This document shows positions 6,041-49,051 of a stretch of 64,000 nt of DNA, piece by piece. Source of the DNA: Gemmatimonadaceae bacterium (GTDB lineage: Bacteria > Gemmatimonadota > Gemmatimonadetes > Gemmatimonadales > Gemmatimonadaceae); the NCBI GenBank assembly GCA_051859245.1, contig JBHYGA010000004.1, positions 768,001 through 832,000 on the forward strand, written 5' to 3'. The position numbers and the translations under genes were made by a program. Positions within the stretch are counted from its first letter, which is position 1. The number at the start of each line of letters is the position of its first letter. A model generated the notes under the pieces. The model worked only from the letters and a program-made list of their open reading frames with translations. It ran no database searches and was not told the origin of the DNA.

Positions 6041-6124
6041 TTCTCCGCCTGCCCCAGGTCAACAGCCTCGCTCCCGCGAGGCTCTCTTTGGCCCAAGTAC
6101 CTAACGTTGTTACACAACATATCG

Positions 6125-7555: not shown

Positions 7556-7565
7556 GGAACAGAGC

Positions 7566-12717: not shown

Positions 12718-13482
12718 CTATTTCCCGCGTCCGGGGATTGGCGGCAGGATCCTGATGGTGTCTTTGGGAAGCGCCTGAATGCGAAACGCAAAGCTCTGCA
12801 CCACCACCTGCGGCACCGGTGTGCCACGCAAACGCGCTGGCCTGAACTTCATGAGCGGTAACGCCGTTCGTACCGCATTGGTAAAAGCAGTGTCGCTGGT
12901 CTGTAGCGCCATAAAGGAAACAGGATCCGCGCGTCCGGTGGAATCCACAATGAATCGCGCCAGTACTTCGCCTTCAACGCGCGCGTTCAGCAACGTGGGC
13001 GGATAGGCCGGGCCACCGCTCGTGGGATCCGTGGTGACCACCGAATCCACCTGAATCTCGCTCAGGGCAAACTCTTCGAGCGCCGATGACGGAACGGATA
13101 TGTCGTCGACAACGTCCGTGCCCGCCTGCGCCGATCCAATCGGCAACTCCGGAGACGGCGGCGCAAAGTCCGACAATTCCGGCTCCGGCGCGCCGCGCAC
13201 GTCGCCGGTGAGTCCCACGTAGCTCAACCGTTCTTCCGAGGCGCGCGACACATCCTTCTTTTCAGGCGCGATGTACACGGGGCCAGGCGCGTCTTCTTCC
13301 GCCGCTGTAAACCGGTAGTCAATCGACATCAGGACCACCGTGCTCGCCACGGTTGCGAGATGCGCCGACATGCCCAACAACGTGCGCAGCACTTCACGCT
13401 TGCCAATCGCGCGACCCGATTCAATCAGGGTGAGTGCGTGACGGCGAGTACCGGGTGATGTCGCTCGCGCTTTGCTTCGCAT
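12718..13482 (-). CDS. TonB family energy transducer
   Basis: One TM helix, acidic/Pro linker, TonB C-terminal domain PAYP..VEGEVLARFIVDSTG..F.PA..G.PV..VVQSFAF; GGAG RBS before ATG 13482. Confidence 0.88.
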   Translation of the reverse strand: MRSKARATSPGTRRHALTLIESGRAIGKREVLRTLLGMSAHLATVASTVVLMSIDYRFTAAEEDAPGPVYIAPEKKDVSRASEERLSYVGLTGDVRGAPEPELSDFAPPSPELPIGSAQAGTDVVDDISVPSSALEEFALSEIQVDSVVTTDPTSGGPAYPPTLLNARVEGEVLARFIVDSTGRADPVSFMALQTSDTAFTNAVRTALPLMKFRPARLRGTPVPQVVVQSFAFRIQALPKDTIRILPPIPGRGK

Positions 13483-13763
13483 GGTAGGACTCCGAGCGTT
13501 AGCTGTCGAGTAAAAAACACGCCCTCTTGTAACAAACCTGTGTTGGTCCGCGCTGGCAAGCGGGTGGGACGGGCCGAACGGTGGGTGCCCCGCCGTGAAC
13601 CGCAGTGGCAAGGCGACTAACCGCCACACGCAACCAATAGCCAGCGCCATTCCCCGGTGACCCAACGGTGGCGTTCACCGCTCCGTAACCACAGGTTGAA
13701 CCGCTGCAGCTTTTGTAAAGATTCCTGATGTCCCGCAGGTCCCCTCCGATCTCCTTCCGCACC

Positions 13764-23495: not shown

Positions 23496-23599
23496 GCTAG
23501 CGCCTGGGGCTCCGAGTCGGGGACTGACGAAGAAAACTTTGGGCGTCTCGTGGGTATTGGAGGAGCCTTTGCTTCGTCTCACGCCGAAAGGAGTCCATA

Positions 23600-26061: not shown

Positions 26062-27987
26062 TCAGCGCCTGGGTCCCGTCCACAGCGCGACAATTCCACA
26101 CGAGCCTCGGTTGGTGAGCGGAATCAACTCGGCCGGTGCGTTTGCGGTTGATGCATACACCTCGATCGCCATGACCTCGTTGCCACTGACATATGCGTCG
26201 AGGCTATTCCCGTCCATGAGCTTGCCGTCAAGCAGCACCTGCATGCGACATCCTCCGCGTCCGAACACGCTGCTTCCGCGCACCGTCACGTAGCGTTTGC
26301 CGTACAGCGCTTGCGCAATGTTTGCCTGCGCGCGCAACTCCAACTCTTCAGGCGCAACGAACTCTCCAACTATTGCACCTCGGCGCACGCGCTCCATGCG
26401 ATCATAGAAGCCAGTGCGCGACAGCGCGGTGTTGCGTGGTGCCACCGCGCGCACTTCCGACAGCGTGGGGTTTGCGGGCGACAACGATATCAGAAACGGC
26501 GCGGAGCTTGATGCACGCACCACGGAACCTTGGTACGGCCGAAATCCGATGCGTTGCACGCGCACATCCACGTCGAGTCGATCTGTTCGCGCCAGCAGCA
26601 CACGCCCGAGTGAGTCCGTCGCGCGCGCGGCGCTGTTCCCCACGTACACAAGCGCGTAGGGAATGGGATTGTTGCTGGCATCCCTGACGAGCAGCATGGC
26701 GCCAGACGAAGGCACAGTGAACGCTGACGAATCTGCGGTCGGTAAAGCCGTGACGATTTCACGCGCCGTGGTATCGGGCACACTCAACACCAGAGCTGAT
26801 GTATCGCGAGTCGTGTCACCAGCGATGTCAGCAGCAGGTATCGGGTCCGCGACCGCCACATCTGCTGAATACTGCACCTCACTGTTCACTGCAATGCTCA
26901 TCACCTCGCCCGAAATGTGTTGCCACCCGAGCAGCACTCGCTGCTCGGTGATCACTCGATCCGGATTCACAATGCTTCGCGGTGCGACCTCCACGCGCTT
27001 GGCAACTTTCGGCATGCGAATTTCCCAGCGACTCACAAACCACGCGCCGCTACGCAGCGAGTCGAACGCCATCCAGCCGCCTGGGTTCGCTTTTCGTGTC
27101 ACGGCGTCCAGGCCGAGATAACTGAACTCCATCTGCTGCAACGCGTACGTGGTGCGATCTAGCCACAACGTGCCCTGCACCTCGTTGACCCCACGTCGCG
27201 TGCGCACGGGTCGGAAACTCACGCCAATCCACTCCGGTTGTTCGGCGTGATCGTTGGCCAACTGCAAGCAGTAGTTCGAAAGAAAGCGGTCGTCCACCAA
27301 CACGTGGGCGTCCGGCGCCCGGTACACGGTGCTTCCGTCGGACTGATTGACGACGTACCCGCCCGCGACCAGTGAGTCCACTGACACACTCTGAAACGCA
27401 CGCAGCGAGTCCGTGATTTCTTCGGTCACGCCGCGTAGCGAATCAACGCGTTCACCACGCGCGTTCCAGTGTTCCGAGACGAGACGATACCGCGACTGAG
27501 GACGCCCGTCGTCCGACACCAGCTCCGACGACAAGAGCGCGGTGCGCGCCTGGGTGAACAGCTGCGCAACCAACGCGGCACCATCGGTGCGCGTACGGCA
27601 GCGGTTATCTGTTTGTGCTCGGAACGTCGCGAGCGTAATGCGCGCGTCAGGAAGTGTGGCACTCAGATCTTGGCGCGCCCCCGCAGCAACTCGCAGCGCG
27701 CCGAGTGTGTACGGTTGATGCCCGATACGCAGCGCGCGTACGATGATGGAGTCGGTCGTGACCGCCAGTCGAAACGTGCCGCGTTGTCCCGTCACTGCGC
27801 GGGCAACGAGCGCACCATCGCTGGCTCGGTTCACCGTGACGACAACACCACCCGCCAGTCGCGCGTCAGGCTCCGCGCGCAGCGTACCAACGATTCCCTG
27901 TGCGTGCAGTGGCGCGGCAACGCACAAGGCGATCGCCACACTGCAGAAGAAGTGCGTTCGGCAGAGTCTGTGCGAAACGTTTACCAC
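26062..27987 (-). CDS. Secreted carboxypeptidase-regulatory-like domain protein with C-terminal TonB plug-like domain
   Basis: GGAGG RBS and GTG 27987; signal ..APLHAQ; LRIGHQP and QRIGFRP strands; tail GFYDR..C..LLDG..AIEVY..APAEL..CGIVALWT. Confidence 0.8.
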   Translation of the reverse strand: MVNVSHRLCRTHFFCSVAIALCVAAPLHAQGIVGTLRAEPDARLAGGVVVTVNRASDGALVARAVTGQRGTFRLAVTTDSIIVRALRIGHQPYTLGALRVAAGARQDLSATLPDARITLATFRAQTDNRCRTRTDGAALVAQLFTQARTALLSSELVSDDGRPQSRYRLVSEHWNARGERVDSLRGVTEEITDSLRAFQSVSVDSLVAGGYVVNQSDGSTVYRAPDAHVLVDDRFLSNYCLQLANDHAEQPEWIGVSFRPVRTRRGVNEVQGTLWLDRTTYALQQMEFSYLGLDAVTRKANPGGWMAFDSLRSGAWFVSRWEIRMPKVAKRVEVAPRSIVNPDRVITEQRVLLGWQHISGEVMSIAVNSEVQYSADVAVADPIPAADIAGDTTRDTSALVLSVPDTTAREIVTALPTADSSAFTVPSSGAMLLVRDASNNPIPYALVYVGNSAARATDSLGRVLLARTDRLDVDVRVQRIGFRPYQGSVVRASSSAPFLISLSPANPTLSEVRAVAPRNTALSRTGFYDRMERVRRGAIVGEFVAPEELELRAQANIAQALYGKRYVTVRGSSVFGRGGCRMQVLLDGKLMDGNSLDAYVSGNEVMAIEVYASTANAPAELIPLTNRGSCGIVALWTGPRR

Positions 27988-28007
27988 CGACGGCCCTCCA
28001 ATCGCTG

Positions 28008-29180
28008 TTACCGCACCGCCATCACATGAATCACAAATGCGTCTTCGGTATCCCGAAGGTACAGCGTGTTGTCGCGCACCGCGAGCAACACCCGATCGCC
28101 AGGCAGCGTGACGCGATACGGCGATCCGGTGGCCGGAAACACGGTCCACACATTCTCCCGCACGACGGCCTTCGACGATAGCGAGCCACGCAGCGTCTGA
28201 AACACCGTCTCCACGCGTGCAGCACTCACCCACAGGGCGCCGTCGTTCGACGCTAGCGCACGTGTAGCGACAGAGTGAAGCGACGGTGTGTTCAGCAGCC
28301 GCGGAATTGGCGCATCGCTGTACCGCGGTGATGTACCGCCGCCGCTCATCGAGATCTGAAATCCCGAGCTGGCTACGCGACGTTGTGCAGTGCGCACATC
28401 GTCTGGTGTGACTTCGCGCGGTTCTTGGCGAATCGAGTCGGTGCGAATCGGTGTAAATCCGTTTGTTGTCACGCGCAACCAGCGTACCACGCCTGTATAC
28501 CCGTGAGCGATGGTCAACACGCTGTCGCCAAATAGTGCCCACGTCGCCTCTTGTCCAAATCCGGTGGACGAGAGTTCGGTTCGCGCGCCGGAGATTGAAA
28601 CGGCATGATCTGTACGCCATGACATCAGGGTGTCGATCCGGCCGCGCGCGTTAGTCAGAATCAGATGGCGAAAGTAGGGCTCGTTGCGAGGCGTCTGATC
28701 GTACGGCAAGCGGCCCTTTGCCAGCAGATCGGAGAACTCAAGCACGTGCCCGCTGCGCAATCCGAATCTCTCGTGGGTTGCGTCGGCGTCGCGCGTTGTG
28801 CCAATCCACCTCCCATCCGTGAGATAACGATGCTGACCGGCCACTTCGTCCGCCACGTAGATCGTATCACGGTGAATTCGTAGTGCCCACGGCTGCTGCA
28901 ACTCGCCGGGGCCTCCGCCTGCGTGTGCGATCGAGCGTGCACGTTTGCCGGTAGTGTCGAGCCGGTCGATCTGTTTGCTTGTGGCGTCGAACACGTAGAG
29001 CTGGCCGCGTGTATCCAGTGCCAGACCGGCCACTCGCCCCAGGGCATCGTCGATGCGCTCGCCAATGGTGCGCACGTGCCGGACCGTGCGCTCGGAAAAC
29101 GCCACGGGCGATTGGGCCGCAAGAGCTTCGCAGATCATGACACTTGCGCAGACCGCAGCAACCACCGTTTGTCTATGCAT
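28008..29180 (-). CDS. Secreted 6-bladed beta-propeller protein
   Basis: Signal MHRQTVVAAV..LAAQ; GGGPGEL, GQLYVFD, DTIYVAD, DGALWV. Confidence 0.8.
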   Translation of the reverse strand: MHRQTVVAAVCASVMICEALAAQSPVAFSERTVRHVRTIGERIDDALGRVAGLALDTRGQLYVFDATSKQIDRLDTTGKRARSIAHAGGGPGELQQPWALRIHRDTIYVADEVAGQHRYLTDGRWIGTTRDADATHERFGLRSGHVLEFSDLLAKGRLPYDQTPRNEPYFRHLILTNARGRIDTLMSWRTDHAVSISGARTELSSTGFGQEATWALFGDSVLTIAHGYTGVVRWLRVTTNGFTPIRTDSIRQEPREVTPDDVRTAQRRVASSGFQISMSGGGTSPRYSDAPIPRLLNTPSLHSVATRALASNDGALWVSAARVETVFQTLRGSLSSKAVVRENVWTVFPATGSPYRVTLPGDRVLLAVRDNTLYLRDTEDAFVIHVMAVR

Positions 29181-36702: not shown

Positions 36703-37902
36703 TTACCCGCCGTGATACCGCCGCAACCAGTCCGTACTCCACTGCGCAAACGAACCATCAATCACCGCTCGCCGCGCCGCCGCCATCAGCTCGATAACAA
36801 ACGTCACGTTGTGAATCGCCAGCAGCCGCTGCCCCAGCGGTTCATTCGCCGAGAACATGTGACGCAGAAACGCGCGGTCGTACTGCGTGCACGCTTCGCA
36901 CGCGCAATCGGCCACCAGCGGCCGACGATCCGTTCGATACGCCGCCTGCAGAATTTGTGCTTTGCCATCAGGTGTAAACGCTGTACCGTCACGCCCCATG
37001 CGGTTGGGCGCCACGCAGTCGAACATATCAATTCCGCGCCGCACCGCTTCCACGAGATCGTCAGGAAATCCAACGCCCATCAAATAGCGCGGGCGATCCA
37101 CCGGCATGAGTGGTTCGCACACCTCGATCGTGCGGTGCATATCGGTTTTCGCTTCACCCACCGACAAGCCACCGATCGCCACACCAACCCAGTCGCCACT
37201 GGCGAGAATGCCGCGCACGGATGCCCGTCGCAACTCGTCGTGCACACCGCCTTGCACAATCGGAAACAGCGCCTGCGCCGGAGCAACACGCTCGTCATCA
37301 GGATGCGGTTCTTCACGCCCTTCAAGAGGCGGCAACACCAGGCCAGGCTCACGCCCCTCGCGCGTGATGCGATCAAACTCCACTCGGCAGCGGTCGAGCC
37401 AGCGCAAACTGCGCTCCATTGCCGAACGCGCCGCGGCTTCGTCACTGCCGCCGGCAATGAGTTCGTCGAGCTGCATGATCACATCAGCGCCAAGATTGCG
37501 CTCAATCTGCATCACACGCTCAGGCGTGTAATCGTACATCGTACCATCAAGGTGACTGCGAAACTCAACCCCTGATTCACGCACCTTGCGATACTTGGCC
37601 AGCGAAAACACCTGAAACCCGCCCGAATCGGTGAGCATCGGGCCCGTCCAGCGCGTAAACGCGTGCAGTCCGCCCAGTGCGCGCACCATCGGATCACCCG
37701 GGCGCAGGAACAGATGGTACGCATTGGAGAGCATCATGCGGCCGCCCGTAGCGGCCACATCGTGCACCGACAAGCTGCGCACCACGCCGTGCGTGCCCAC
37801 AGGCATGAAGGCCGGCGTTTGCAGGTCGCCATGCGGCGTGGTGAAGACGCCGGCGCGAGCGGAGCCGTGGGTTGCTTCGGTGCGAAATGCGAAGGGCGTC
37901 AT
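36703..37902 (-). CDS. tgt: tRNA-guanine(34) transglycosylase
   Basis: TPAFMPVGT, TDSGGFQVFSL, GGLSVGE, PRYLMGVG, DMFDCV, Zn site CxCxxC..H. Confidence 0.96.
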   Translation of the reverse strand: MTPFAFRTEATHGSARAGVFTTPHGDLQTPAFMPVGTHGVVRSLSVHDVAATGGRMMLSNAYHLFLRPGDPMVRALGGLHAFTRWTGPMLTDSGGFQVFSLAKYRKVRESGVEFRSHLDGTMYDYTPERVMQIERNLGADVIMQLDELIAGGSDEAAARSAMERSLRWLDRCRVEFDRITREGREPGLVLPPLEGREEPHPDDERVAPAQALFPIVQGGVHDELRRASVRGILASGDWVGVAIGGLSVGEAKTDMHRTIEVCEPLMPVDRPRYLMGVGFPDDLVEAVRRGIDMFDCVAPNRMGRDGTAFTPDGKAQILQAAYRTDRRPLVADCACEACTQYDRAFLRHMFSANEPLGQRLLAIHNVTFVIELMAAARRAVIDGSFAQWSTDWLRRYHGG

Positions 37903-37996
37903 TGCGCGCCCTCAGAGAGAAGTGGCATGCGGGAACGTAACCGGCGGTTTGACAGGCTGGGAGCGCCAGCGCTACGATTTGCGTTGAGGACATATC

Positions 37997-39823
37997 ATGT
38001 CTCTGTCTGTGCTGGTACTTAGAACGCAAAAGGCGATCCGGTTTCGCACGCGTCTCCTGTCGATTGCCCGGCTTGGCGCAACGATCGCGCTGACGTTGGC
38101 GAGCCCGCAATTGGCCAGCGCACAGGTGTTGCGCGGACGCGTCCAATCGGTGTTGCCAGAGGGCGGCGCACCCGCTGCTGTCCGTGGCGCGCTGGTTGAA
38201 CTGCTCGACAGCACGCGCTCGGTTGTGGCTCGCCAGATCAGCGCGCCCAATGGCGTCTTCCGGTTTTTGTTGCCAGCCACCGGTCGCTACCAGCTTGATG
38301 TGCGTCGTATTGGATATCGGCGCGCCACGCCCGCGCCACTCACGGTGCGCACTGACACAACCGTCACGGTCACGCTGGACGTTGTCGCGATTGCGCTGCC
38401 GGCCGTCACATCACGCGAAGTCAATCGCTGTAGCAACGACCGCGAGCGCGGATCCGCGACATCGGTGTTGTGGGAATCTGCAGTTACGTCCATGCTCAGC
38501 GCGGCGGCTACCATGTCAGACAGTTCGTATGTGTTTGACCTGATGCCGAGTGTGCGTACGTACACCGTGCCCGATGCGATCATGCTCGACATCTCGCTAC
38601 GCGATGAACGTGTTGCCGACGTACGACCGTGGACCAGTTTGCCCGCGGCGGATCTGGCAGAGTTTGGATACGTGCGACTGGTGGGACGCTCGCTGGAGTA
38701 TGTCGCGCCCGATGTCGAGGCGCTGACGTCGGCCGAGTTTCTGGCCACGCACTGTTTGCGTTTGCGTCAGGATCGATTGAGTGAAGACATCATTGGCGTG
38801 GAGTTTGCGCCAGGCGAGCGCGTCACGCGTGCCGACATTCGCGGCGTGCTCTGGATCGATCGCCTGTCGCAGGAACTGCGTGCGATCGAATACACGTACG
38901 CCGCGGTGCCGTTGGCGGTGGCCGATTCGCTAGCGGGCGGCGTGGTAGAGTTTGCACCGCTCGACGGTGGCGGCTGGATGCCAAGTCGATGGATGGTGCG
39001 GAGTCCGATACCGGAACGGTCATTCGTTGATGCGGTTGCCTATCGCGGCGAAGACTTGCGTCGCGCAGGATTGCCTGTGGCGGTGCGCAACGTTGATCCA
39101 CCGCTGCGTGCTACGCGCATGCAAATGACTGGCGCCGATGTGCAGCGAGTGCGACGTGTTGTTGGACGCGATTCAACAATTATCTGGACGCGCACCACGG
39201 CGACGCTTGAGGTCACGGCCGAGTTCACGCAGAACAACGTGACCATGCCGGCCATGCGAGCGAACGTTCGTCTCTCTGGCTCGGATCGCCGCGGTGAAGC
39301 CGATGTGCTGGGCCGAGTGACGTTCGCCGAGTTGCCAGATGGGGAATATCTCGTTGAAGCGGTGACACCAACGGAATCGGCGCTGCACCTGATGCCCGAT
39401 CGCACGCCGGTCACGGTGCGCGCCGGTGAGTTGCGTAAAATGCAGGTGCCCGTGCTCGCGCCGGCGGCCGCTGTGGAACGCGCGTGCGGGCCGGCAATGC
39501 GCGGCGGCGTGATCTCTGGTCGCGTGTCGCGCGATGGACGCGCTTCATCGAACGCCACCGTCAGTGCGTGGCGGCGCAACATCGCGGCCGGCGACGCCGC
39601 GGCCGGCGACGCCGCGGAGCTCGAATCACTCGGCACCATCACCGCGGATAGCACGGGGCGTTTCCTGCTGTGCGGTGTGCCGCGAGGCGTGGAGCTCACG
39701 ATTATTGCGCGTGGGACAGACAAGTCCATGACGATTGATGAGCTGACTCTGCCGCTGTGGCGCGACGCCATCGGCGAATACGTCCGTACAGTAGAGCTGC
39801 GCTTGCCCTCTGCGGCTCGGTAG
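37997..39823 (+). CDS. Secreted carboxypeptidase-regulatory-like domain protein (head of the array; no plug domain)
   Basis: GAGG RBS; signal ..LASAQ; VRRIGY; middle domain shared with 26062-27987; GRFLLCGVP. Confidence 0.82.
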   Translation: MSLSVLVLRTQKAIRFRTRLLSIARLGATIALTLASPQLASAQVLRGRVQSVLPEGGAPAAVRGALVELLDSTRSVVARQISAPNGVFRFLLPATGRYQLDVRRIGYRRATPAPLTVRTDTTVTVTLDVVAIALPAVTSREVNRCSNDRERGSATSVLWESAVTSMLSAAATMSDSSYVFDLMPSVRTYTVPDAIMLDISLRDERVADVRPWTSLPAADLAEFGYVRLVGRSLEYVAPDVEALTSAEFLATHCLRLRQDRLSEDIIGVEFAPGERVTRADIRGVLWIDRLSQELRAIEYTYAAVPLAVADSLAGGVVEFAPLDGGGWMPSRWMVRSPIPERSFVDAVAYRGEDLRRAGLPVAVRNVDPPLRATRMQMTGADVQRVRRVVGRDSTIIWTRTTATLEVTAEFTQNNVTMPAMRANVRLSGSDRRGEADVLGRVTFAELPDGEYLVEAVTPTESALHLMPDRTPVTVRAGELRKMQVPVLAPAAAVERACGPAMRGGVISGRVSRDGRASSNATVSAWRRNIAAGDAAAGDAAELESLGTITADSTGRFLLCGVPRGVELTIIARGTDKSMTIDELTLPLWRDAIGEYVRTVELRLPSAAR

Positions 39824-39970
39824 GCGGCTGGCGCGATTGGTCACGGAACTCGTGATACAGGTCACGAGTATGAGCGTCTGGTCCCTGCGTATTCGGCGTG
39901 TGTATTCCCGATGTCAGAGTGACGCCCGCCTGTTCCTGCCGTTGCCTCCCGCCCGCTTTCGGAACCTCGC

Positions 39971-41314
39971 ATGTCTCAGCCTGCCACGCTGTGGAGATCG
40001 CTGTTCGCCGTTGCTGTGGCGCTGACTTCGGCTGCGAATCTCAACGCGCAACCGATGGCCATACCGGATACCGTGCGCGGCGTGGTCTTTGACAGTCTGG
40101 CGAATGAACCCCTGGCCGGCGCCTTCGTGGTCGCCAATGCGGCCGGTGCGTCTGTTGCCACCGATTCCCTTGGACAGTTTGTGCTCGTCAGCAGCGAGAC
40201 GGTCACGCAGCTGACCGCCTATCATCCGGCACTCGATGCCATGGGACTCGGCGCCATCTCCGCCCGACGGCCCGCGCGAACGGATCGCTGGCACTCGGCG
40301 TTGGTGGCCACGCCGTCGCTCAACACACTCTGGCCTAAAGTGTGTGGCTCAGGAAAGCCGGACCCGCAGCGCACCGGAATCATCACCGGCACGGCGCGCC
40401 TCGCGGACAACAGCACGCGCGTGTCCGGGGCAAGGGTGATGGTGCAGTGGGAATCGGTGTTCAGCGATGCGCGGAGTATTCGTGATCTCGATGTGATGAC
40501 CGATTCGGTTGGTGAATACGTGGTGTGCGGAGTGGAAGAGTTTGCGGAGCCGCGAATGGTGGCGCTATCTGATCAGGCACAGTCGGGTGCGATTGCGCTA
40601 CCGTCGCAGGTGCGTCCGCTGCGCCGAGTTGATCTGATCCTGTCGCCGACTGATGCGCCGCGGGTGGCGTTGCGTGGCCGCGTGCGCAACGAGCGGGGCG
40701 TGGGTGTGGAAGGAGTGCGCGTGACGCTCGACGGTGTTGAGGGCGAATGGGTGACATCGCGAGACGGCACGTTCAGTGTGATCGGTGCGCCGCTCGGCAC
40801 CCGCATGCTGTCATTGCGTGCGGTTGGCTATTCTCCCGTCTCGCAAGTGGTCGAAGTGTTGGGTGAATCAATGCCCGTGCTTGAGATTCCGCTGGAACGC
40901 ACGATTGAGCTGGAGGGTGTGCGCGTGACGGAACGAGTGGATCTCAGGCGAATACGCTCTGACTTTGAATCGCGCCGACGCGCCGGATGGGCGCGGTACG
41001 TTGATTCCTCGGCGATCGATAAAGCGCCCTTCGTTCGGGCCGCACTGAACATGGTGCAGGGCATCACGGTGCGACCCCTTCGTAACGCACCAACGACGGA
41101 GTTTGAAATTCTCGGGCGCTCCGGATGCCAGGCGCACATCTACATGGATGGGACCATCTCTGACATTGATGAAGTGAACCGCATTCCGAAGGAGCAGATT
41201 GCCGCAATTGAGATCTATGCGTCGGTCGCGTTCGCTCCCGCAACGCTGGTGCGCGTGAAGGCCGACAACTGCGCGGTTGCGGCCTTCTGGACCAAGTATG
41301 GACTACGCCCGTGA
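39971..41314 (+). CDS. Array paralogue 1: carboxypeptidase-regulatory-like domains plus TonB plug-like domain
   Basis: VRGVVFDSL, TPSLNTLWP, PLRRVDL, RAVGY, IAAIEIY, FWTKYGLRP. Confidence 0.88.
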   Translation: MSQPATLWRSLFAVAVALTSAANLNAQPMAIPDTVRGVVFDSLANEPLAGAFVVANAAGASVATDSLGQFVLVSSETVTQLTAYHPALDAMGLGAISARRPARTDRWHSALVATPSLNTLWPKVCGSGKPDPQRTGIITGTARLADNSTRVSGARVMVQWESVFSDARSIRDLDVMTDSVGEYVVCGVEEFAEPRMVALSDQAQSGAIALPSQVRPLRRVDLILSPTDAPRVALRGRVRNERGVGVEGVRVTLDGVEGEWVTSRDGTFSVIGAPLGTRMLSLRAVGYSPVSQVVEVLGESMPVLEIPLERTIELEGVRVTERVDLRRIRSDFESRRRAGWARYVDSSAIDKAPFVRAALNMVQGITVRPLRNAPTTEFEILGRSGCQAHIYMDGTISDIDEVNRIPKEQIAAIEIYASVAFAPATLVRVKADNCAVAAFWTKYGLRP

Positions 41315-41324
41315 GCAGACAGAC

Positions 41325-42725
41325 GTGAGGTCACTCGGAAGCGCGCCCCTGGGCACACCTGTGCGTGAAGGCTGGACACCTCTCGCCCATACCGTGTGCA
41401 CCCTTCTGTTGATCTCGCTGAGCGCCGTGCCGCTTCAGGCACAAGAACGCGTCGATCGCGTCAGGGGTGTTGTATTCGACAGTCTCGCGAACGAAGTGCT
41501 GGCGAACGCATTCGTCGTTGCCAGCCCCGGTGGCGCGACCGCAACGTCGGATTCACTCGGCCGGTTTGAGTTGATCAGCGACGTACGCGTCGCGCAGCTC
41601 ACCGTGTATCACGAAGCGTTGGACGGCATGGGACTTGGCGCGATCTCGGTTGAGCGTCCGGTCACGGCGTCGGTATGGCAAGACGTGACCGTGAGCACGC
41701 CGTCACTGAACACGATCTGGCCACGTGTGTGCGAAGGCCCGCCTCCGCGGAATGCGCGTCTCGGTATTGTCACCGGCACCGCGCGTCTTACGGACAATAC
41801 AACGCGCGTATCCGGTGCCAAGGTCATTGTGCAGTGGAAGCCGACCTCAAGTGGACCAGACGAGCTACAGAGCCTGGAAGCCACCACCGATTCGCTCGGC
41901 GACTATGTGCTGTGTGGTATTGAAGCATTCACGGAACCAATCATGGCGGCGCTGTCGGATCGCGCACAGTCCGGCGTGATCGCTATGCCATTGCAGGTGC
42001 GACCGCTCCGGCGCGTTGATCTGATTCTTGCCACGATTGATTCAGCACGCGCGCCAGAGGTCAGCACCGTTCGCGGACGCATGGTCAATGCACAAGGTGC
42101 GCCGGTGAGTGAGGTACGCGTGAGTATTGATGGACGTGAAGGGGAAGTACTGAGCGGTGACGACGGGACGTTCACGCTCACCGACGTGCCGCTGGGTACG
42201 CGCATGCTGGCGGTGCGCGCGGTAGGATACTCTCCTGTGTCGCAACCGGTAAATGTGTTGAGCGCACCGATGACGCCGCTGCGCATCTCACTCGCGCGCG
42301 CGGTTGAACTCGAAGGTGTGCGAATCACGGAGCGCGCCATCGTGCGGCGGGAGCGAAGCGAGTTTGATTTCAGGCGCCGAGCCGGATTCGGTCAGTTCGT
42401 CGACTCAACAGCGATCGCGCGCGCTCCGAATGTTCGCGCGGCGATACAAATGACGCATGGCGTGCGAATCACGGCGTGGGTTCCGGAAGGGAGCAATGTC
42501 CCCACATCCGGCTTTGATATTCGTGGGCGCAATGGTTGTAGAGCGCACATCTGGCTTGATGGTACGCCCTCAACCATCGACGAAGTGAATGCTGTTCCGC
42601 AAGCGAACATTGCCGCCATCGAGTTCTATTCGAGCGTCGCCTTCGCTCCGGTGCGATCTATCAACGTGCGCGCCGATGTGTGCGCTGTCGCGATCGTCTG
42701 GACGAAAAACGGATTGCGTCCGTGA
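41325..42725 (+). CDS. Array paralogue 2 (start uncertain: 41298/41325/41361)
   Basis: Same motifs; ends VWTKNGLRP. Confidence 0.85.
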   Translation: MRSLGSAPLGTPVREGWTPLAHTVCTLLLISLSAVPLQAQERVDRVRGVVFDSLANEVLANAFVVASPGGATATSDSLGRFELISDVRVAQLTVYHEALDGMGLGAISVERPVTASVWQDVTVSTPSLNTIWPRVCEGPPPRNARLGIVTGTARLTDNTTRVSGAKVIVQWKPTSSGPDELQSLEATTDSLGDYVLCGIEAFTEPIMAALSDRAQSGVIAMPLQVRPLRRVDLILATIDSARAPEVSTVRGRMVNAQGAPVSEVRVSIDGREGEVLSGDDGTFTLTDVPLGTRMLAVRAVGYSPVSQPVNVLSAPMTPLRISLARAVELEGVRITERAIVRRERSEFDFRRRAGFGQFVDSTAIARAPNVRAAIQMTHGVRITAWVPEGSNVPTSGFDIRGRNGCRAHIWLDGTPSTIDEVNAVPQANIAAIEFYSSVAFAPVRSINVRADVCAVAIVWTKNGLRP

Positions 42726-44095
42726 GGAACGTTGTTGCGGCGCTTGCGCTGGCGTGGATGCCACTCGCAGGTGCGCAGGCCCAAAACCCACCGCCCGTGA
42801 TCGACACCGTGCTCATCACCTCCTGCAAAACGGTGTGCGATGTGGTGTCCGGCGTGGTGTACGACAGCCTCGTCCGCGAGCCACTCGCTGGCGCGCTTGT
42901 GGTCGCACGGCCGAGCGGTATCACCGTGACCACCGATTCGGTTGGACGCTTTCTCATCTCCAGCGAAGAGCGCGTGAACGAGCTCACGGTGTATCACGAA
43001 GCGCTCGATAACATGGGTCTCGGTGCGCTCGTGACAACGAGACCGGCGAACGCCGCCACGTGGACGAATGTCACCATTGCCACACCGTCGCTGCTGACCA
43101 TCTGGCCCAAGATCTGTGGCGGTGACAAACGGCCTGTTGGTCTGCGTGCGGTAGTACTCAGCGGTTCGTTACGTCTCGCCGACAACAACACGCGTGTGTC
43201 GGGTGCGAAAGTGCTGGTGCAGTGGCCCAAACCACCGGGCGCCAGCGGCGACGATCTGCGCTCTACAGAAACGGTCAGTGATTCGCTCGGCAACTTTCTC
43301 GTGTGTGGTGTGGAAGAGTTTGCTGAGCCGTCGCTGCTGGCGATCTCCGCCGAAGCGCAATCAGGAATCGTTACCATGCCCGCCGACTCACGTCCGTTGC
43401 GGCGCGTCGACCTGGTGCTTGGTCGCCTTGGTGCAGGCGCAGCGCGGGCCTCACTGCGCGGCATCATCACGAACAACACCGGTATTCCGCTGCGCGATAT
43501 GCGTGTGGGCATTGATGGACGCGAAGGAGAAGTTGTCACCGGGAGCGACGGCACGTTCACGCTCGACAACGTGCCGCTCGGCTCACGCATGCTCTCGGTG
43601 CGTTCGGTTGGCTATTCGCCGCTGTTGCAAGTGGTTGATGTGCTCGAAGCAGACAACGCGCGCATTACGATCCCCATGGAGAAACCGTTTGCGATTGAAG
43701 GTGTGACCGTGACCGCGCGAAGCATCGTGCGACGCGATCGGCAAGAGTTCGAAATGCGGCGGCGCGCCGGATGGGGACGATTTGTGGACTCGACGGCGAT
43801 CAATCGCGTGCCCTTCGTTCGCCAGGCGCTGCAGTCGGTGCCCGGTGTGAACGTGACCACGTCGCCCTATTCAGCAACGGAGTTTGTGATCAGGGGACGC
43901 CGCGGATGCCCGGCGATTTTCTGGGTAGACGGTGTGGAAGATCCCGATGGACTTGTGCAGCGTATTCCCAAGGAGAACATCGCCGCCATCGAGGTATACC
44001 CGAGCTCCGCGCTTGCTCCGGGGCGCTACGTGAAAGTCATGGCCGATGACTGTCCGGTCGTGCTCTTCTGGACCAAGAACGGGCTGCGTCCGTGA
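42722..44095 (+). CDS. Array paralogue 3
   Basis: GTGA overlap; same motifs; ends FWTKNGLRP. Confidence 0.88.
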   Translation: MRNVVAALALAWMPLAGAQAQNPPPVIDTVLITSCKTVCDVVSGVVYDSLVREPLAGALVVARPSGITVTTDSVGRFLISSEERVNELTVYHEALDNMGLGALVTTRPANAATWTNVTIATPSLLTIWPKICGGDKRPVGLRAVVLSGSLRLADNNTRVSGAKVLVQWPKPPGASGDDLRSTETVSDSLGNFLVCGVEEFAEPSLLAISAEAQSGIVTMPADSRPLRRVDLVLGRLGAGAARASLRGIITNNTGIPLRDMRVGIDGREGEVVTGSDGTFTLDNVPLGSRMLSVRSVGYSPLLQVVDVLEADNARITIPMEKPFAIEGVTVTARSIVRRDRQEFEMRRRAGWGRFVDSTAINRVPFVRQALQSVPGVNVTTSPYSATEFVIRGRRGCPAIFWVDGVEDPDGLVQRIPKENIAAIEVYPSSALAPGRYVKVMADDCPVVLFWTKNGLRP

Positions 44096-45588
44096 GTGCG
44101 ACTGTGCGCCGCTTCGCGATCGCCACGTGTCGATCCGTAATGGCGACGGTATTGACCGTCGCATCAGTCGCATTGACGAGCACAACCGCGAAGGCGCAGG
44201 ACCCACCGCCGCTTCAACTCCCGGACACGCTGCTGGTCATGATCTGCAAGCAGGCCTGCGATGTTGTGAGTGGTGTTGTCTTTGACAGTCTCGCCGACGC
44301 ACCGCTCAGCGGCGCGTTCGTTGTCGCGCAACCAACGGGCGTCACCACCACCACCGATTCACTCGGACGATTCATCATTGCCAGCGACGGTCGTGTGCAG
44401 CAGCTCACGGCGTATCACAGCGCGCTCGACGAGCTCGGACTCGGCGCATTGACGGCGTCACGTCCCGCCGGTGATGGCGAATGGAAACGCGTTCGCATTG
44501 CGACACCGTCGCTGCCCACGATCTGGCCGCGACTGTGTCCCGCGACTCCTTTGCTGCGCTCGCGTGGTGTGATCCTCACCGGAAGCGCACGCTTGAGCGA
44601 TAACACCACGCGACTGGCCGGAGCGAAAATTCTTGCGCAGTGGCCCGCACCTCCAACAGATATCGCCAGTGACGCGCCGACCTCTGCACAAACGCTGACT
44701 GATTCCAGCGGCGGTTTTGTTATCTGTGGCGTCGCGGATTTTGTGGAGCCGGCGATTGTGGCGCTCTCCGCCGAAGCGCAAAGTGGTGTTGTCTTGCTGC
44801 CTGCGGATCCGCGGCCGTTGCGGCGTGTGGATCTCGTGATGGCCCCAACGACTGCGACACCAACGATTGTTCGTGGCCGCGTCGTGAATGAGTGGAACGC
44901 GCCGCTTCCGGATGTGCGCGTGAGTATTGACGGGCGTGACGGGGATGTCATCACCGGCAGCGACGGCGTGTTTCGACTGCCAGACGTGCCGTTGGGCTCG
45001 CGCATGCTCTCAGTACGCCGGATTGGATTTCCTATGGCAATGCAGGTGGTACACGTGGTGGAAGGCGACATGGAGCCGTTGGACGTGTCGATCACGCGCA
45101 CCTACACGCTCGGTACCATCAAACTCTCGCCCACTGAAACCGTACGCCGCGAGCGCGCCGATTTTGAACTGCGCAAACGCACAGGCGTCGGGTTTTTTAT
45201 TGACTCCACCACCCTGCAAAAGGCACCCGATTTACGAACCGCGCTCAAGGCCGCACCAGGAATCTCGATTATTGAGCCCATCGCCCAGGCCGCACGTCAG
45301 CCCACGGCGGCTGATCGTGCGCAGGTCGTCAGCGGTGCCCCCACCTCGTCGCAAGTGGTATTTGAACTGCGCGGCCCGGGCACTTGCCGTCTGAATGTGT
45401 ATCTGGACGGTGTGCTGGACCCCGCCTACACCCCACTTTTCACCAACAAGGGCGAGTTCGCCGCCATCGAGGTGTACGCGCGCGCGGCCGACGTGCCGCG
45501 TGACATCATCGTCTCGCGTCGCCAGACCGTGTACGCCAGTCGCTGCGGGGCGGTCTTTTTCTGGACGCGATTCGGACTCCGACCCTGA
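44092..45588 (+). CDS. Array paralogue 4
   Basis: GTGA overlap; same motifs with an insertion in the plug-like domain; ends FWTRFGLRP. Confidence 0.88.
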   Translation: MSATVRRFAIATCRSVMATVLTVASVALTSTTAKAQDPPPLQLPDTLLVMICKQACDVVSGVVFDSLADAPLSGAFVVAQPTGVTTTTDSLGRFIIASDGRVQQLTAYHSALDELGLGALTASRPAGDGEWKRVRIATPSLPTIWPRLCPATPLLRSRGVILTGSARLSDNTTRLAGAKILAQWPAPPTDIASDAPTSAQTLTDSSGGFVICGVADFVEPAIVALSAEAQSGVVLLPADPRPLRRVDLVMAPTTATPTIVRGRVVNEWNAPLPDVRVSIDGRDGDVITGSDGVFRLPDVPLGSRMLSVRRIGFPMAMQVVHVVEGDMEPLDVSITRTYTLGTIKLSPTETVRRERADFELRKRTGVGFFIDSTTLQKAPDLRTALKAAPGISIIEPIAQAARQPTAADRAQVVSGAPTSSQVVFELRGPGTCRLNVYLDGVLDPAYTPLFTNKGEFAAIEVYARAADVPRDIIVSRRQTVYASRCGAVFFWTRFGLRP

Positions 45589-45652
45589 TACTCATCCCAC
45601 CCGTCTTGCCCGCATGGGTGGTCGCGCGCCTCGTGCTCCGTCATTTTGGTGT

Positions 45653-47074
45653 ATGCAGATTCTCACGTCCCCCCGCTCCATCGCCGCCGCGCTCCTGGTT
45701 GGGCTGACCACCGTGTTGGCGTCCGCCGAGTTCACGCACGCGTCGTCGATTCCAGGTGCTCGCACGCCGCACGCGGCACCAGACACGGTGCGCGGCCTCG
45801 TGTACGACAGCCTCACCAACACGCCGCTCGCCGACGCGTTTGTCACCGCCGAGGGCGCGGGTGCGTCCACCACGAGCGATTCACTCGGACGCTTTACGCT
45901 CGTGAGTGAACAGCGCATTACGCGCATCACCGCGTTTCACGAAGCGCTTGACCAAACTGGATTTGGTGGTGTGCAGGCCGAACGTCCGGCCAACACGGAG
46001 CGGTGGACCAACGCAACGCTGGCCACACCGTCGCTCAACACGGTCTGGCGCAACGTGTGCAAACTGGAGCTGCCGGCCGGCGACAAGCGCGGTGTACTGG
46101 TGGGCAGCGCGCGTTTACCCGACAATACCACGCGCATTGCCGGTGCCGCCATTCGTGTGCAATACGAAGTGATTCTGCCGCGTACTGGACTCGCGCAGCT
46201 TGAAGAACTCGAGGCCATTACCGATTCCCTCGGCAGCTTTGTGGTGTGTGGTGCACCCGTGTTTGGCGAAGTGGCGGTGATTGGCTTGTCGTCACAGGTG
46301 CAGTCTGGTGCCGTGCGCGTGGCGTTTGAATCGCGTCCGCTGTTGCGACTTGATCTGGTGCTCGGGCCCGTTGACGGACCGGTGGCCAAGTGGCCCACGA
46401 TTACGGGGCGCGTGGTATCCGACAGCAACACTGCGATTGTGGGTGCGCAGGTATCGATTGACGGACGTGATAGTGCCGTGATCACCGGTGCAGACGGCAG
46501 CTTCACATTGCGCCAGGTACCAACAGGCTCGCGCATGCTCACCGCGTCGGCGACCGGATTTCCCGCGCTGGCCGTGCAGGTGGACGTGCTCAACGAGAAT
46601 ACGCCGGCCGTGACGGTGCAGATGCAGCGCGGCTTTACCATTGCCGGTCTTGAAGGACTCAATGTCACCGAGCGTACGACAATCCGTCGCTCACGGCGCG
46701 ATTTTGAAGAACGGCGCGCCGAAGGACGTGCCTGGTTCGTGGATTCCAGCGAGATCTCGACCGCGGGTTCGTTGCGTGCGGCACTCACCGGGGTGCCTGG
46801 ACTGATGATCGAAACGGCCATTGGCGAGACCGACGAAAAGCTCTTCGACATTTTTTCGTACGGCCGCAACTTCGGTGTGCGCGCCTGCCAGGCGGCCCTG
46901 TTCATTGATGCGGTCCCGGCCAAAATCGCCGATATCCGGGCCCTCGCCGTGGCTGAAATCGCCGCCATCGAAGTGTACCGAAACGAGGCCTACGCCCCGG
47001 AAATCTTCAGCGCCTTCGCCAAGGGCGACTGTGCCGTGGTGGGCTTCTGGACCCGGTTCGGCCTGCGTCCGTAG
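45653..47074 (+). CDS. Array paralogue 5
   Basis: Signal from ATG 45653; VRGLVYDSL, IAAIEVY; ends FWTRFGLRP. Confidence 0.86.
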   Translation: MQILTSPRSIAAALLVGLTTVLASAEFTHASSIPGARTPHAAPDTVRGLVYDSLTNTPLADAFVTAEGAGASTTSDSLGRFTLVSEQRITRITAFHEALDQTGFGGVQAERPANTERWTNATLATPSLNTVWRNVCKLELPAGDKRGVLVGSARLPDNTTRIAGAAIRVQYEVILPRTGLAQLEELEAITDSLGSFVVCGAPVFGEVAVIGLSSQVQSGAVRVAFESRPLLRLDLVLGPVDGPVAKWPTITGRVVSDSNTAIVGAQVSIDGRDSAVITGADGSFTLRQVPTGSRMLTASATGFPALAVQVDVLNENTPAVTVQMQRGFTIAGLEGLNVTERTTIRRSRRDFEERRAEGRAWFVDSSEISTAGSLRAALTGVPGLMIETAIGETDEKLFDIFSYGRNFGVRACQAALFIDAVPAKIADIRALAVAEIAAIEVYRNEAYAPEIFSAFAKGDCAVVGFWTRFGLRP

Positions 47075-47152
47075 GGCTCGCTGATGGCCGCCGGGGGCGT
47101 GCCACGGGGTGGAAAGACCCCGAACCGTCCCCGGATTGGTTAGCTTTCATGA

Positions 47153-49051
47153 ATGTCCAATACCGCAACGCACCTTGATCACACGGATTCGTCCGTGGCA
47201 TCAACTATAGATACGACCGAACTGACTGGCTTCGCCTCGCTCGGCATGGATGTTCGCCTTCTCTCTGCGCTCACCGCGCTGGGATACGAAGAGCCAACAC
47301 CGATTCAAATGGCGGCCATTCCGCCACTGCTCGCCGGACGCGACGTGCTCGCGATGGCAGCCACTGGCACTGGCAAGACGGCGGCCTTTGCGCTGCCGCT
47401 GCTACACAAGCTCAATCCCAACGCACGCGCCGCCGAACGCACCGCCGGCCTCGTGCTCGTACCCACGCGCGAACTCGCCATGCAGGTGGCCGAGGCGGTG
47501 CATCGCTACGGCAAGCCGCTCGGCATTACGGCGCTGGCGATTTACGGCGGCGCACCGATGGAGCCGCAGCTCAAGGCGCTCAAGCGCGGCGTCGATGTGG
47601 TGATTGCCACACCGGGACGCGCGCTTGACCATTTGCGTCGCAAGTCGCTGTCACTCGCGCACATCAAAGTGGTGGTGCTCGATGAAGCCGACGAAATGCT
47701 CGACATGGGTTTCGCCGACGATCTCGAAGCGATTCTCGAGAACACACCGCCCGATCGTCAGACGGCGCTGTTTTCGGCGACGTTGCCGCCGCGCATTAAC
47801 TCGATTGCCAACGGTCACCTCACCGATCCAGTGCGCGTTCGCATTGATCGTGAGATCGTGGCCGACGGTGCAACCGCGCGTGTGCGTCAGGTTGCGTATG
47901 TCGTCACGCGCAATCACAAGATGGCCGCGCTTGGTCGTGTACTCGATGTGGAAAGCCCCACGGCGGCGATCGTGTTCTGTCGCACGCGTACGGAAGTTGA
48001 CGAACTCAACGAAACGCTCACTGCACGCGGATTGCGCGCCGAAGCGTTGCACGGTGGACTGTCGCAGGATCAGCGTGATCGTGTGATGAAGCGCTTCCGT
48101 GCCAAGAAAACTGATTTGTTGATTGCGACAGACGTTGCGGCGCGCGGACTCGATGTTGATCACGTGTCACACGTGGTGAACTTTGACGTTCCGTCAGACG
48201 CCGAGGCATATGTGCACCGCATTGGTCGTACGGGTCGCGCGGGTCGCACCGGTATCGCGATTACGCTCGCCGAACCGCGTGAACATCGGTTGCTGCGCAA
48301 CATTGAGCGGCTCACGGGTCAGCCAATCTCGATTGAAGCGGTGCCCACGGTGTCTGATTTGCGCGCGCGTCGTTTGGAGCTCACACGCTCGGCGTTGCGT
48401 GACGCAATCCTTGAGACGGCGAAAACCGGTGGTGATGAAGCGGGTCACGAAGTGATCGCGTCGCTGGCCGAAGAGTTTGACATTTTTGATATCGCCGCCG
48501 CTGCGGTGCGTTTGCTTGACGCCGGTCGACAGGGAACGGAAGAGCCAGAGATTCCCGTGGCGAGTGTGCGTCCTGAGCGCACGTCGTCGTACAGCGGATC
48601 GGCGCCGGGTGGCGCGCGTTCATTCCCGGCGCGCACGTCGCGCAGTGAACGTTCGGAGCGTTCGGAGTCTGGTGGTGGCCGCAGTGATCGTCCGAGCAGC
48701 TCGCGCGGTGAACGTCAGACGGGTGCCGCAGGACGCATTGCTGCGTCAGGCAGCGAAGGTGCGGCGGCCAAGCGTGCGCCAGCCAAGCCGCGTGCGCCGA
48801 GTGCTGGTGGTTCGCTCACCAAGTTGTTCATTGGTGGCGGTCGCAAGGCCAAGATTCGTCCAGGTGATCTTGTGGGTGCGATTGTGAATGAGACCGGTGT
48901 TGCGGCCGCTGACATCGGCGCGATTGTGATCAGCGATCGTCATTCCACGGTCGAAGTGCCGTCAGCGAAAGCAGATCAGATTGTGCAGGCGCTCGGCGCC
49001 GCGCACATCAAGGGCAAGAAGGTGCCGGTGCGTCGGGATCGCGTGGGGTAA
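47153..49051 (+). CDS. deaD: DEAD-box RNA helicase (DeaD/CsdA-like, DbpA RNA-binding domain)
   Basis: PTPIQ, TGTGKT, PTRELA, DEAD, SAT, HRIGRTGRAG; C-terminal IRPGDLVGAI.NE. Confidence 0.9.
   Translation: MSNTATHLDHTDSSVASTIDTTELTGFASLGMDVRLLSALTALGYEEPTPIQMAAIPPLLAGRDVLAMAATGTGKTAAFALPLLHKLNPNARAAERTAGLVLVPTRELAMQVAEAVHRYGKPLGITALAIYGGAPMEPQLKALKRGVDVVIATPGRALDHLRRKSLSLAHIKVVVLDEADEMLDMGFADDLEAILENTPPDRQTALFSATLPPRINSIANGHLTDPVRVRIDREIVADGATARVRQVAYVVTRNHKMAALGRVLDVESPTAAIVFCRTRTEVDELNETLTARGLRAEALHGGLSQDQRDRVMKRFRAKKTDLLIATDVAARGLDVDHVSHVVNFDVPSDAEAYVHRIGRTGRAGRTGIAITLAEPREHRLLRNIERLTGQPISIEAVPTVSDLRARRLELTRSALRDAILETAKTGGDEAGHEVIASLAEEFDIFDIAAAAVRLLDAGRQGTEEPEIPVASVRPERTSSYSGSAPGGARSFPARTSRSERSERSESGGGRSDRPSSSRGERQTGAAGRIAASGSEGAAAKRAPAKPRAPSAGGSLTKLFIGGGRKAKIRPGDLVGAIVNETGVAAADIGAIVISDRHSTVEVPSAKADQIVQALGAAHIKGKKVPVRRDRVG

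Follow-up and report, generated by a model that had tools for sequence, protein, structure and literature searches.

TonB-dependent transport is understood as the work of a motor that pulls on a plug held in a barrel, and the locus described here raises the question of what a plug may be for when its gene ends before any barrel begins. The window analyzed is a 64,000-nucleotide stretch of DNA from a Gemmatimonadaceae bacterium (GenBank assembly GCA_051859245.1, contig JBHYGA010000004.1, positions 768,001 to 832,000 of the forward strand). At positions 39971-47074 it contains five consecutive paralogous genes on the plus strand. Their products are, with good support, Sec-exported, barrel-less derivatives of the periplasm-facing N-terminal part of SusC/Oar-type TonB-dependent transporters (TBDTs). 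The domain order is likewise well supported: two transthyretin-like sandwiches, a CarboxypepD_reg sandwich of the type found as N-terminal extension (NTE) in transporters, a flexible TonB-box-like strand, an arginine-rich helix and a plug core with two cysteines.

The first-pass annotation of this DNA had described five consecutive paralogues of about 450-500 amino acids (aa), and all five open reading frames (ORFs) were found where it had placed them. Copy 1 (39971-41314, 447 aa) comprises a signal peptide, three beta-sandwiches, the TonB-box-like strand ELEGVRVT, a basic helix, a plug-fold domain and the terminal residues GLRP. Copy 2 has the same architecture in an ORF of 482 aa (41277-42725), which shortens to 475 aa with the ATG at 41298. 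Copy 3, the copy with the best Plug match and the one that was modelled, lies in an ORF of 471 aa (42680-44095); a database gene call (P0001, 457 aa) implies a start at the GTG at 42722. Copy 4 (44092-45588, 498 aa) has a degenerate strand and a long insert in a plug hairpin, and copy 5 lies in an ORF of 559 aa (45395-47074) with internal ATG codons at 45614 (486 aa) and 45653 (473 aa). The true starts of copies 2, 3 and 5 are likely to be later than the ORF openings, and all five proteins then measure 447-498 aa. Overlaps of stop and start codon in the sequence GTGA are present at two junctions, between copies 2 and 3 (42722-42725) and between copies 3 and 4 (44092-44095), as had been noticed; they are four bases long and the two genes of each pair are in different frames, so that the description of these junctions as in-frame has to be corrected. 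At the other junctions no more than some tens of bases separate the genes, which leaves no space for a barrel within the array.

An alignment of the five proteins showed 42-57% identity of copies 2-5 to copy 1. In the numbering of copy 1 the invariant columns include W121, C125, C186, G187, C386, D393, A411-A412-I413-E414, Y416, C434, W440, T441 and G444-L445-R446-P447. The two cysteine pairs described in the first-pass annotation are thus invariant; the first of them, C125/C186, lies within the group W121, C125, C186 and G187. Pairwise identity is highest in the first sandwich and the last strand (0.55-0.70) and lowest in a loop of the second sandwich and one stretch of the plug (0.24-0.26). 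The TonB-box-like strands ELEGVRVT, ELEGVRIT, AIEGVTVTA and LEGLNVT were found as reported; copy 4 deviates and has TLGTIKLS at this position. The N-termini, read by eye, show a hydrophobic core and, behind it, sites of A-x-A-like type (LNA-Q, LQA-Q, AQA-Q, AKA-Q and ASA-E).

A scan with Pfam identified CarboxypepD_reg (PF13620) in all five copies with E values from 8.7e-17 to 8.3e-21. The only strong Pfam matches are to PF13620 and PF13715, and both stop at the TonB-box-like strand. The Plug model (PF07715) scored 28.9 bits in copy 3, above the cut-off of 23.9, 22.3 bits in copy 2 and 15.3 bits in copy 1; copies 4 and 5 had no match listed at E≤1. The scan therefore bore out the sandwiches and the lack of a barrel in every copy, and the plug at the level of the Pfam cut-off in copy 3 only. 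The NCBIfam model for SusC/RagA, TIGR04056, is matched over its positions 3-180 by residues 259-439 of copy 3. The plug-fold module itself has no model of its own in the Pfam and NCBIfam libraries scanned.

The AlphaFold2 model of copy 3, built with 61 relatives, has a mean predicted local distance difference test (pLDDT) value of 91.1. It consists of three beta-sandwiches, a strand linker of lower confidence (pLDDT of 68 and 76 in the two blocks), a helix and a mixed alpha/beta domain. In the gene, the strand (AIEGVTVTA) is encoded at 43691..43717, between the NTE-type sandwich and the plug-fold domain, and the basic helix together with the plug-fold domain and its conserved cysteine pair at 43718..44092, both on the plus strand. 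The third sandwich superimposes on the NTE of the SusC dextran transporter (9hfj; Z 12.0, root mean square deviation (rmsd) 2.2, 80 aligned residues), on the NTE of the levan transporter (6ytc; Z 9.2) and on a domain of carboxypeptidase D (5aq0; Z 12.7, rmsd 1.5, 80 aligned residues). The seven-strand, transthyretin-like sandwich of the PF13620/PF13715 type is thus present in all five copies by sequence and in copy 3 by the match to 5aq0, and the position of an NTE of the CarboxypepD_reg type directly before a Ton-box-like strand is that of the SusC/Oar subclass.

Searches with the whole model were dominated by the sandwich domains, and the C-terminal domain was therefore folded alone. The last 134 residues of copy 3 gave, with 37 aligned sequences, a model with a pLDDT of 92.9 and a predicted template modelling score of 0.85. 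Using this model, the best 50 matches listed by Foldseek were all TBDTs, among them SusC, RagA, Cir, FepA, PfeA, BtuB, ChuA and TbpA, with template modelling (TM) scores on the query of 0.47-0.59 over 106-156 alignment columns. In an independent search with VIA-align, 42 of 48161 chains reached Z≥2; the best 30 were all TBDTs, aligned over plug residues, with FyuA at the top (Z 7.6, rmsd 3.9, 109 aligned residues) and the other 29 at Z 3.0-4.8. A family profile compared with the sequences of the PDB ranked TBDT plug regions first (9gbc_A residues 80-213, E 4.5e-6). Taken together, the predicted model, the two fold searches and the profile support well the assignment of the C-terminal domain to the TBDT plug fold, as first proposed. 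The chain ends 2-5 residues past the last plug strand, and the domain stops with the Pfam Plug core, without the further plug segments that fill a barrel. The two conserved cysteines of the plug core probably form a disulfide, judging from their conservation.

The extent of the family was determined with a profile built on the C-terminal domains of the five copies, which was compared with 1.84 billion representative sequences. It identified 4076 proteins at E≤1e-3, each representing a cluster at 50% identity, and 289 at E≤1e-10; the members are 84-1079 aa long. Alignment of all collected proteins to the family profile yielded 222 instances of the domain, of which 220 reach the end of the profile. 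The tail behind the plug domain has a median length of 2 residues and is no longer than 15 residues in 215 of these 220; among the other five, four proteins have tails of 21-72 residues and one case is the first unit of a tandem protein (P0218). None of the 220 runs on into sequence of barrel length. Among the 76 relatives of copy 3 with similar length, precomputed matches include Plug in 19 and the barrel model PF00593 in none. Continuation of the homologues into a barrel, which would have argued against free plugs, is thus not what the family shows. A search among proteins of 826-2355 aa gave a single match, a sandwich-repeat protein without plug or barrel, which we regard as weak evidence. 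P0218 (1079 aa) contains two tandem units of NTE, strand and plug; the first extends to residue 810 and the second to the end of the chain. At L024:6374-8974 (G000 C4:24971-27574, minus strand) two adjoining members have a non-terminal plug-fold domain with about 170 further residues behind it.

The window's own genome contains 17 members at E≤3.2e-7, and genuine TBDTs appear with the same profile only at E≥5.6e-5; because of this gap the family is cleanly separate from real TBDTs. The shortest architecture, of about 250 aa, has a signal peptide, one sandwich, the strand, the helix and the plug. Besides it there are the array form of 450-500 aa and forms of 750-1080 aa with an additional N-terminal module. 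The unit upstream of the plug domain is always an NTE-type sandwich with the strand. Over the 222 instances the strand follows the motif L-[ED]-[GT]-V-x-V-T-[AE], with L in 91%, E/D in 65%, G/T in 57%, V in 78%, any residue at the fifth position, V/I in 90%, T in 49% and A/E in 75%. The arginine-rich helix behind it ends with R-[RK]-[RK]-x-G-x-G (R 98%, first G 97%, last G 86%), and is followed by the two cysteines (each at least 90%), a D-G pair, an A-I-E-V-Y stretch and a W-T pair. In the wider family only a few variable residues follow the conserved strand ...C-G-x-V-x-V-W-T-K, with endings such as WTGPRR or WTR. The terminal GLRP, which the first-pass annotation had called invariant, holds for all five copies and is confined to their close subfamily.

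Named relatives are called either "hypothetical protein" or "carboxypeptidase regulatory-like domain-containing protein" and come from Gemmatimonadaceae or unclassified bacteria; the named records and a language-model atlas both point to Gemmatimonadota. A survey of copy number in this phylum detected the family at E≤1e-5 in 90 of 151 sampled genomes, a count that includes the unpublished genome G097 (one match), with 1 to at least 25 matches per genome, 25 being the number of candidates scored in each. Among taxonomic families the presence was highest with 30 of 31 genomes and lowest with 0 of 13. A narrow-pattern search for related loci returned 16 loci and says little on range. In the full-text literature searched, which holds few subscription journals, no functional description of free plug proteins was found, in line with the first-pass annotation's view of an undescribed system, and "Plug domain-containing protein" occurs there as an annotation label only. 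This is a large family without a model or study of its own.

To compare the histories of the five copies, a quick maximum likelihood tree of 25 proteins was calculated, consisting of the five window copies and 20 of 75 other relatives chosen by hand, with support from the Shimodaira-Hasegawa-like approximate likelihood ratio test. In this tree the nearest relatives of the array proteins are found outside the array. The partner of copy 1 is P0039 (support 100) and that of copy 5 is P0058 (96), while copy 3 goes with P0002 (91) and copy 4 groups with P0034 and P0055 (100). Since their nearest relatives are in other genomes, the sequences identify the array as a set of old, separately maintained paralogues and not as the product of a recent burst. 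The recent diversification that the description as a diversified family suggested thus gives way to five old lineages. P0055 and P0058 share one contig of 5324 bases, so that copy-4-like and copy-5-like genes are also close together elsewhere.

Directly upstream of the array, at 37997..39823 on the plus strand, a gene encodes an exported protein of 608 aa with CarboxypepD_reg sandwiches (PF13620, E 1.2e-13) and an N-module at residues 72-337, without a plug. In other family members this N-module is fused upstream of the NTE-plug unit. It shows 28% identity over 272-282 residues to the long-form member of the window (E 9e-20) and to P0079 (E 4e-23), and the shared module provides a fusion-type link between the upstream gene and the array. 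The N-module has no sequence relative in the PDB, leads from a language-model look-up reached at most 0.91, and its match to a profile of the plug alignment is limited to the end of the sandwich and the strand. A sigma-70-like promoter match (TTGACA-18-TACGAT, 10/12) is located at 37949..37978 on the plus strand, just 5' of the gene. It is a consensus match only and the sole one on the plus strand in 37800-47300; the promoter scan gave 4 sites compared with 1.9 ± 1.4 in shuffled sequences. Its position suggests a six-gene operon, and the five copies are probably co-transcribed with the N-module gene. A Gemmatimonas metagenome-assembled genome (L001) shows the same order, with a 636-aa homologue, four copies and a DEAD-box helicase.

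The long-form member mentioned above lies on the minus strand at 26062..28008, in a frame open to 28620 (852 aa), and combines N-module, sandwiches and a C-terminal plug fold (E 2.2e-10) ending in WTGPRR. Of the frame at 26062-28620, the last about 640 residues represent the long-form member, and what precedes them appears to be non-coding. Beside it, at 22410-26052 on the plus strand, a small Omp85-family protein (361 aa) is followed by two proteins of about 410 aa without a Pfam or NCBIfam match.

With respect to function, we tentatively prefer an account that we rate as possible, though short of an even chance: the products of the array would be soluble in the periplasm and display a TonB box to TonB or one of its paralogues. 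The localization is inferred from signal peptides read by eye and from the absence of a barrel or lipobox; without these or a membrane segment the proteins would stay soluble in the periplasm. The TonB box would be offered to the C-terminal domain of TonB or a paralogue by strand pairing, and the proteins would act as TonB-coupled periplasmic clients or adaptors and not as transport gates. Nothing in the Pfam Plug model corresponds to the helix and the cysteine pair. They are presumably adaptations that stabilize the plug core outside a barrel, where helix and disulfide may substitute for the support that a normal plug receives from the barrel wall. Tight translational coupling and the long retention of distinct paralogues suggest that the copies act together, possibly as a hetero-oligomer. 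The wider proposal, in which free, disulfide-stabilized plugs with a working TonB box are soluble TonB clients throughout the phylum, the Ton motor acts through them on proteins of the periplasm instead of gates inside a barrel, and the five paralogues with the N-module protein form one hetero-oligomeric periplasmic device, appears rather improbable.

The argument for this account begins with the strand, a candidate TonB box by its conserved sequence and its expected place. It resembles the TonB boxes of E. coli, which are of the D-T-x-x-V-T-A type. Another similar sequence is DEVVVTG, the Ton box behind the NTE of Bt1763, a SusC protein in which deletion or replacement of this box abolished growth on levan; the same study describes the function of the NTE as still unknown (PMC7782687). 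The genome contains one TonB-ExbB-ExbD-ExbD cluster and eight TonB_C matches above the cut-off, one of the eight in the window. In complex predictions the canonical TonB C-domain (L017:517-816) and the strand-plug part of copy 3 scored 0.32, 0.31 and 0.28 against a mark of 0.32, and the controls scored 0.00, a result that speaks neither way on binding.

Several observations weigh against a TonB-coupled plug. The strand coincides with the C-terminal end of the Pfam CarbopepD_reg_2 model, the match in copy 3 running through AIEGVTV, and the plug-less N-module has a similar L-x-x-V-x-V strand behind its first sandwich; because it is part of PF13715 and occurs in this module, its conservation could be structural and not TonB-related. 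In copy 4 the strand is degenerate. A pull by TonB would meet no resistance from a soluble protein, unless anchored N-terminal sandwiches hold it in place. The window does encode a TonB_C-domain paralogue (12718..13665, minus strand; 27.4 bits compared with a cut-off of 24.6, match at 12778-13011), which is not located beside exbB or exbD. In the other genomes that were checked it is not linked to close relatives of the array, and in two of them it lies 150-170 kilobases from the nearest. TonB, ExbB and ExbD were not found as conserved neighbours of family members, and all-against-all clustering of 261 ORFs from 27 loci brought out no common partner family apart from groups of local synteny. 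Finally, apart from FyuA the VIA-align scores are just Z 2.1-4.8, so that the plug assignment rests on the specificity of the matches and on the sequence profile, not on high Z scores.

Some of these points lend themselves to a different explanation, in which the plug fold was re-used as a TonB-independent module for binding, oligomerization or anchoring at the end of immunoglobulin-like envelope proteins with a structural or adhesive role, and the strand is an inherited linker. The strand behind CarboxypepD_reg in the N-module and in the PF13715 model, the loss of the motif in copy 4 and the lack of a linked Ton gene all speak for it. The domain, moreover, sits at the extreme C-terminus behind N-terminal parts of varied length, in proteins of 84-1079 aa, and the whole model resembles strings of immunoglobulin-like domains such as those of pilins and S-layer proteins. 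The resemblance to pilins, however, is confined to the common sandwich fold (TM 0.11-0.17). The domain also does not behave like a tag on unrelated passengers, since NTE-type sandwich and strand precede it as a constant unit, and the motif is conserved (L 91%, V 78%, V/I 90%) in a linker of low confidence beyond what a passive linker usually needs. We consider this explanation the main rival, somewhat less likely than the preferred account.

If instead the proteins were plugs supplied in trans, as in the interchangeable plugs for a barrel encoded elsewhere that the first-pass annotation had envisaged, a plug-less barrel should exist in the genome. Plug fold and TonB box together are what a plug requires, and a separately expressed plug and barrel of FhuA reportedly restored activity in E. 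coli. The window (C4:768001-832000) contains no match to PF00593, nor do the 33 large ORFs of the window that were scanned, which agrees with the absence of a barrel gene noted at the outset. Genome-wide, 35 Plug matches exceed the cut-off, one being copy 3 and the other 34 lying in frames of 580-1254 aa. The 23 PF00593 matches above the cut-off lie in frames of 695-1170 aa, and pairing of barrel and Plug matches by coordinates showed that each of these frames also has a Plug match; the same is true for all 13 matches to the second barrel model, PF14905. Two further candidates turned out to have divergent plugs. The frame with a sub-threshold barrel match on contig C9 shows a divergent plug when read, and the transporter-like protein at L027 (G000 C1:427153-429906) has an STN-like start, CarboxypepD_reg, a divergent plug by eye and a barrel-type C-terminus. 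L027 has no Pfam Plug or barrel match, and Pfam models for these domains thus miss some Gemmatimonadota transporters. Ten other long frames with aromatic ends and without a Plug match, picked by eye, comprise eight members of other Pfam families and two without a Pfam match. NCBIfam gave nothing useful on 11 unannotated neighbours considered as hidden barrels. A 765-aa unannotated neighbour considered for the same role reads as a membrane protein and not as a barrel. At G000 C1:1469759-1472328 a transporter extends over two consecutive frames, one of 695 aa with the plug and half of the barrel and one of 412 aa with the remaining barrel; this split could be a frameshift or a pseudogene.

With PF00593, PF14905 and the frames that were read, no plug-less barrel was found in the genome, and barrels which these models do not see could be missed. 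Natural TBDT barrels of Bacteroidota with a small plug or none escaped the Pfam barrel and plug models, as stated in a 2025 preprint, so that the negative result is no proof (10.1101/2025.11.13.688124). Nevertheless, 17 free plugs are hard to reconcile with no free barrel, and this makes a split transporter unlikely. The added helix and cysteine pair look like adaptations to life outside a barrel, and the domain lacks the plug segments that would fill one. We therefore regard a supply in trans as quite improbable.

Proteins that leave the cell would be a further alternative, either as surface proteins or as bacteriocin-like agents that would exploit, by means of the TonB box, the Ton machinery of cells nearby. 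Apart from transporters, TonB boxes are known from colicins and pyocins, which likewise carry a TonB-box-like strand on a protein without a barrel. In the array proteins the strand is internal, behind the NTE, and they differ from these bacteriocins by the absence of a receptor-binding or killing domain and of an immunity gene. The family is multi-copy and rich in paralogues, and genes for secreted peptidases (S8 twice, S41, M28) occur near 4 of the 9 scanned own-genome loci outside the window. In contrast, no domain of a toxin, an enzyme or an immunity protein was found in copies or neighbours, variation is greatest in loops and not in a C-terminal effector, no secretion-system gene is linked, and the paralogues are old and orthologous across genomes without rapid turnover. 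Secreted agents of this kind are accordingly very improbable. Decayed transporters or annotation fragments, as plug-only database architectures from short contigs often are and as the several short family matches without an initial methionine might indicate, are effectively refuted by five intact, packed frames with no room for about 600 aa of barrel, the stop position conserved in 215 of 220 instances, members inside contigs of up to 1.09 Mb, confident models and conserved family-specific features.

The surroundings of the family members were scanned with Pfam around these nine loci (69 of 110 selected ORFs, those nearest to the members). The neighbours are heterogeneous and include SusC/SusD, a DsbA-like protein with SRP54, DNA polymerase III, enolase, flagellar genes and the peptidases S8, S41 and M28, and recurrence is limited to synteny groups of three loci. 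A SusC/SusD pair stands tail-to-tail with a member in two unrelated contexts, L018 (G000 C1:1658001-1672000) and L005-L007; with an estimated number of about 35 TBDTs per genome such adjacency is about as frequent as expected by chance and possibly due to it. At 6107-11737 on the plus strand, the window also contains a complete RND efflux operon with outer-membrane factor, membrane-fusion protein and AcrB-type pump (E 7e-203).

Among known systems, the SusC/RagA- and Oar-type TBDTs are closest, with the same N-terminal order of NTE-type sandwich, Ton-box-like strand and plug fold. The array proteins share the plug fold with them and differ by the lack of a barrel (PF00593 or PF14905), two extra N-terminal sandwiches, the arginine-rich helix, the conserved cysteine pair and a chain that goes no further than the last strand of the Pfam Plug core. 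The plug-less "Type S" barrels of Bacteroidota are the mirror image, in which the two halves are also naturally uncoupled; they are barrels without plugs from another phylum, and no free plug is described in the accessible part of that report (10.1101/2025.11.13.688124), whereas the array represents plugs without a barrel. The C-terminal sorting domain of the type IX system is a small beta-sandwich, in contrast to the plug fold found here. The label "carboxypeptidase regulatory-like" fits the sandwiches of the relatives and ignores the C-terminal module that defines the family, so that a family of 4076 clusters is named only after its commonest sandwich domain.

A family that keeps NTE, TonB box and plug core and never the barrel does not fit the picture of a motor pulling a plug inside a barrel. 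Either TonB has clients that are not barrels, as in the periplasmic account that we tentatively prefer, or the plug fold has found a further use as a domain in its own right. A plug that is predicted to be well folded and soluble would be an object for study without a membrane, and the family may provide a handle on the envelope biology of a poorly studied phylum that is abundant in soil.

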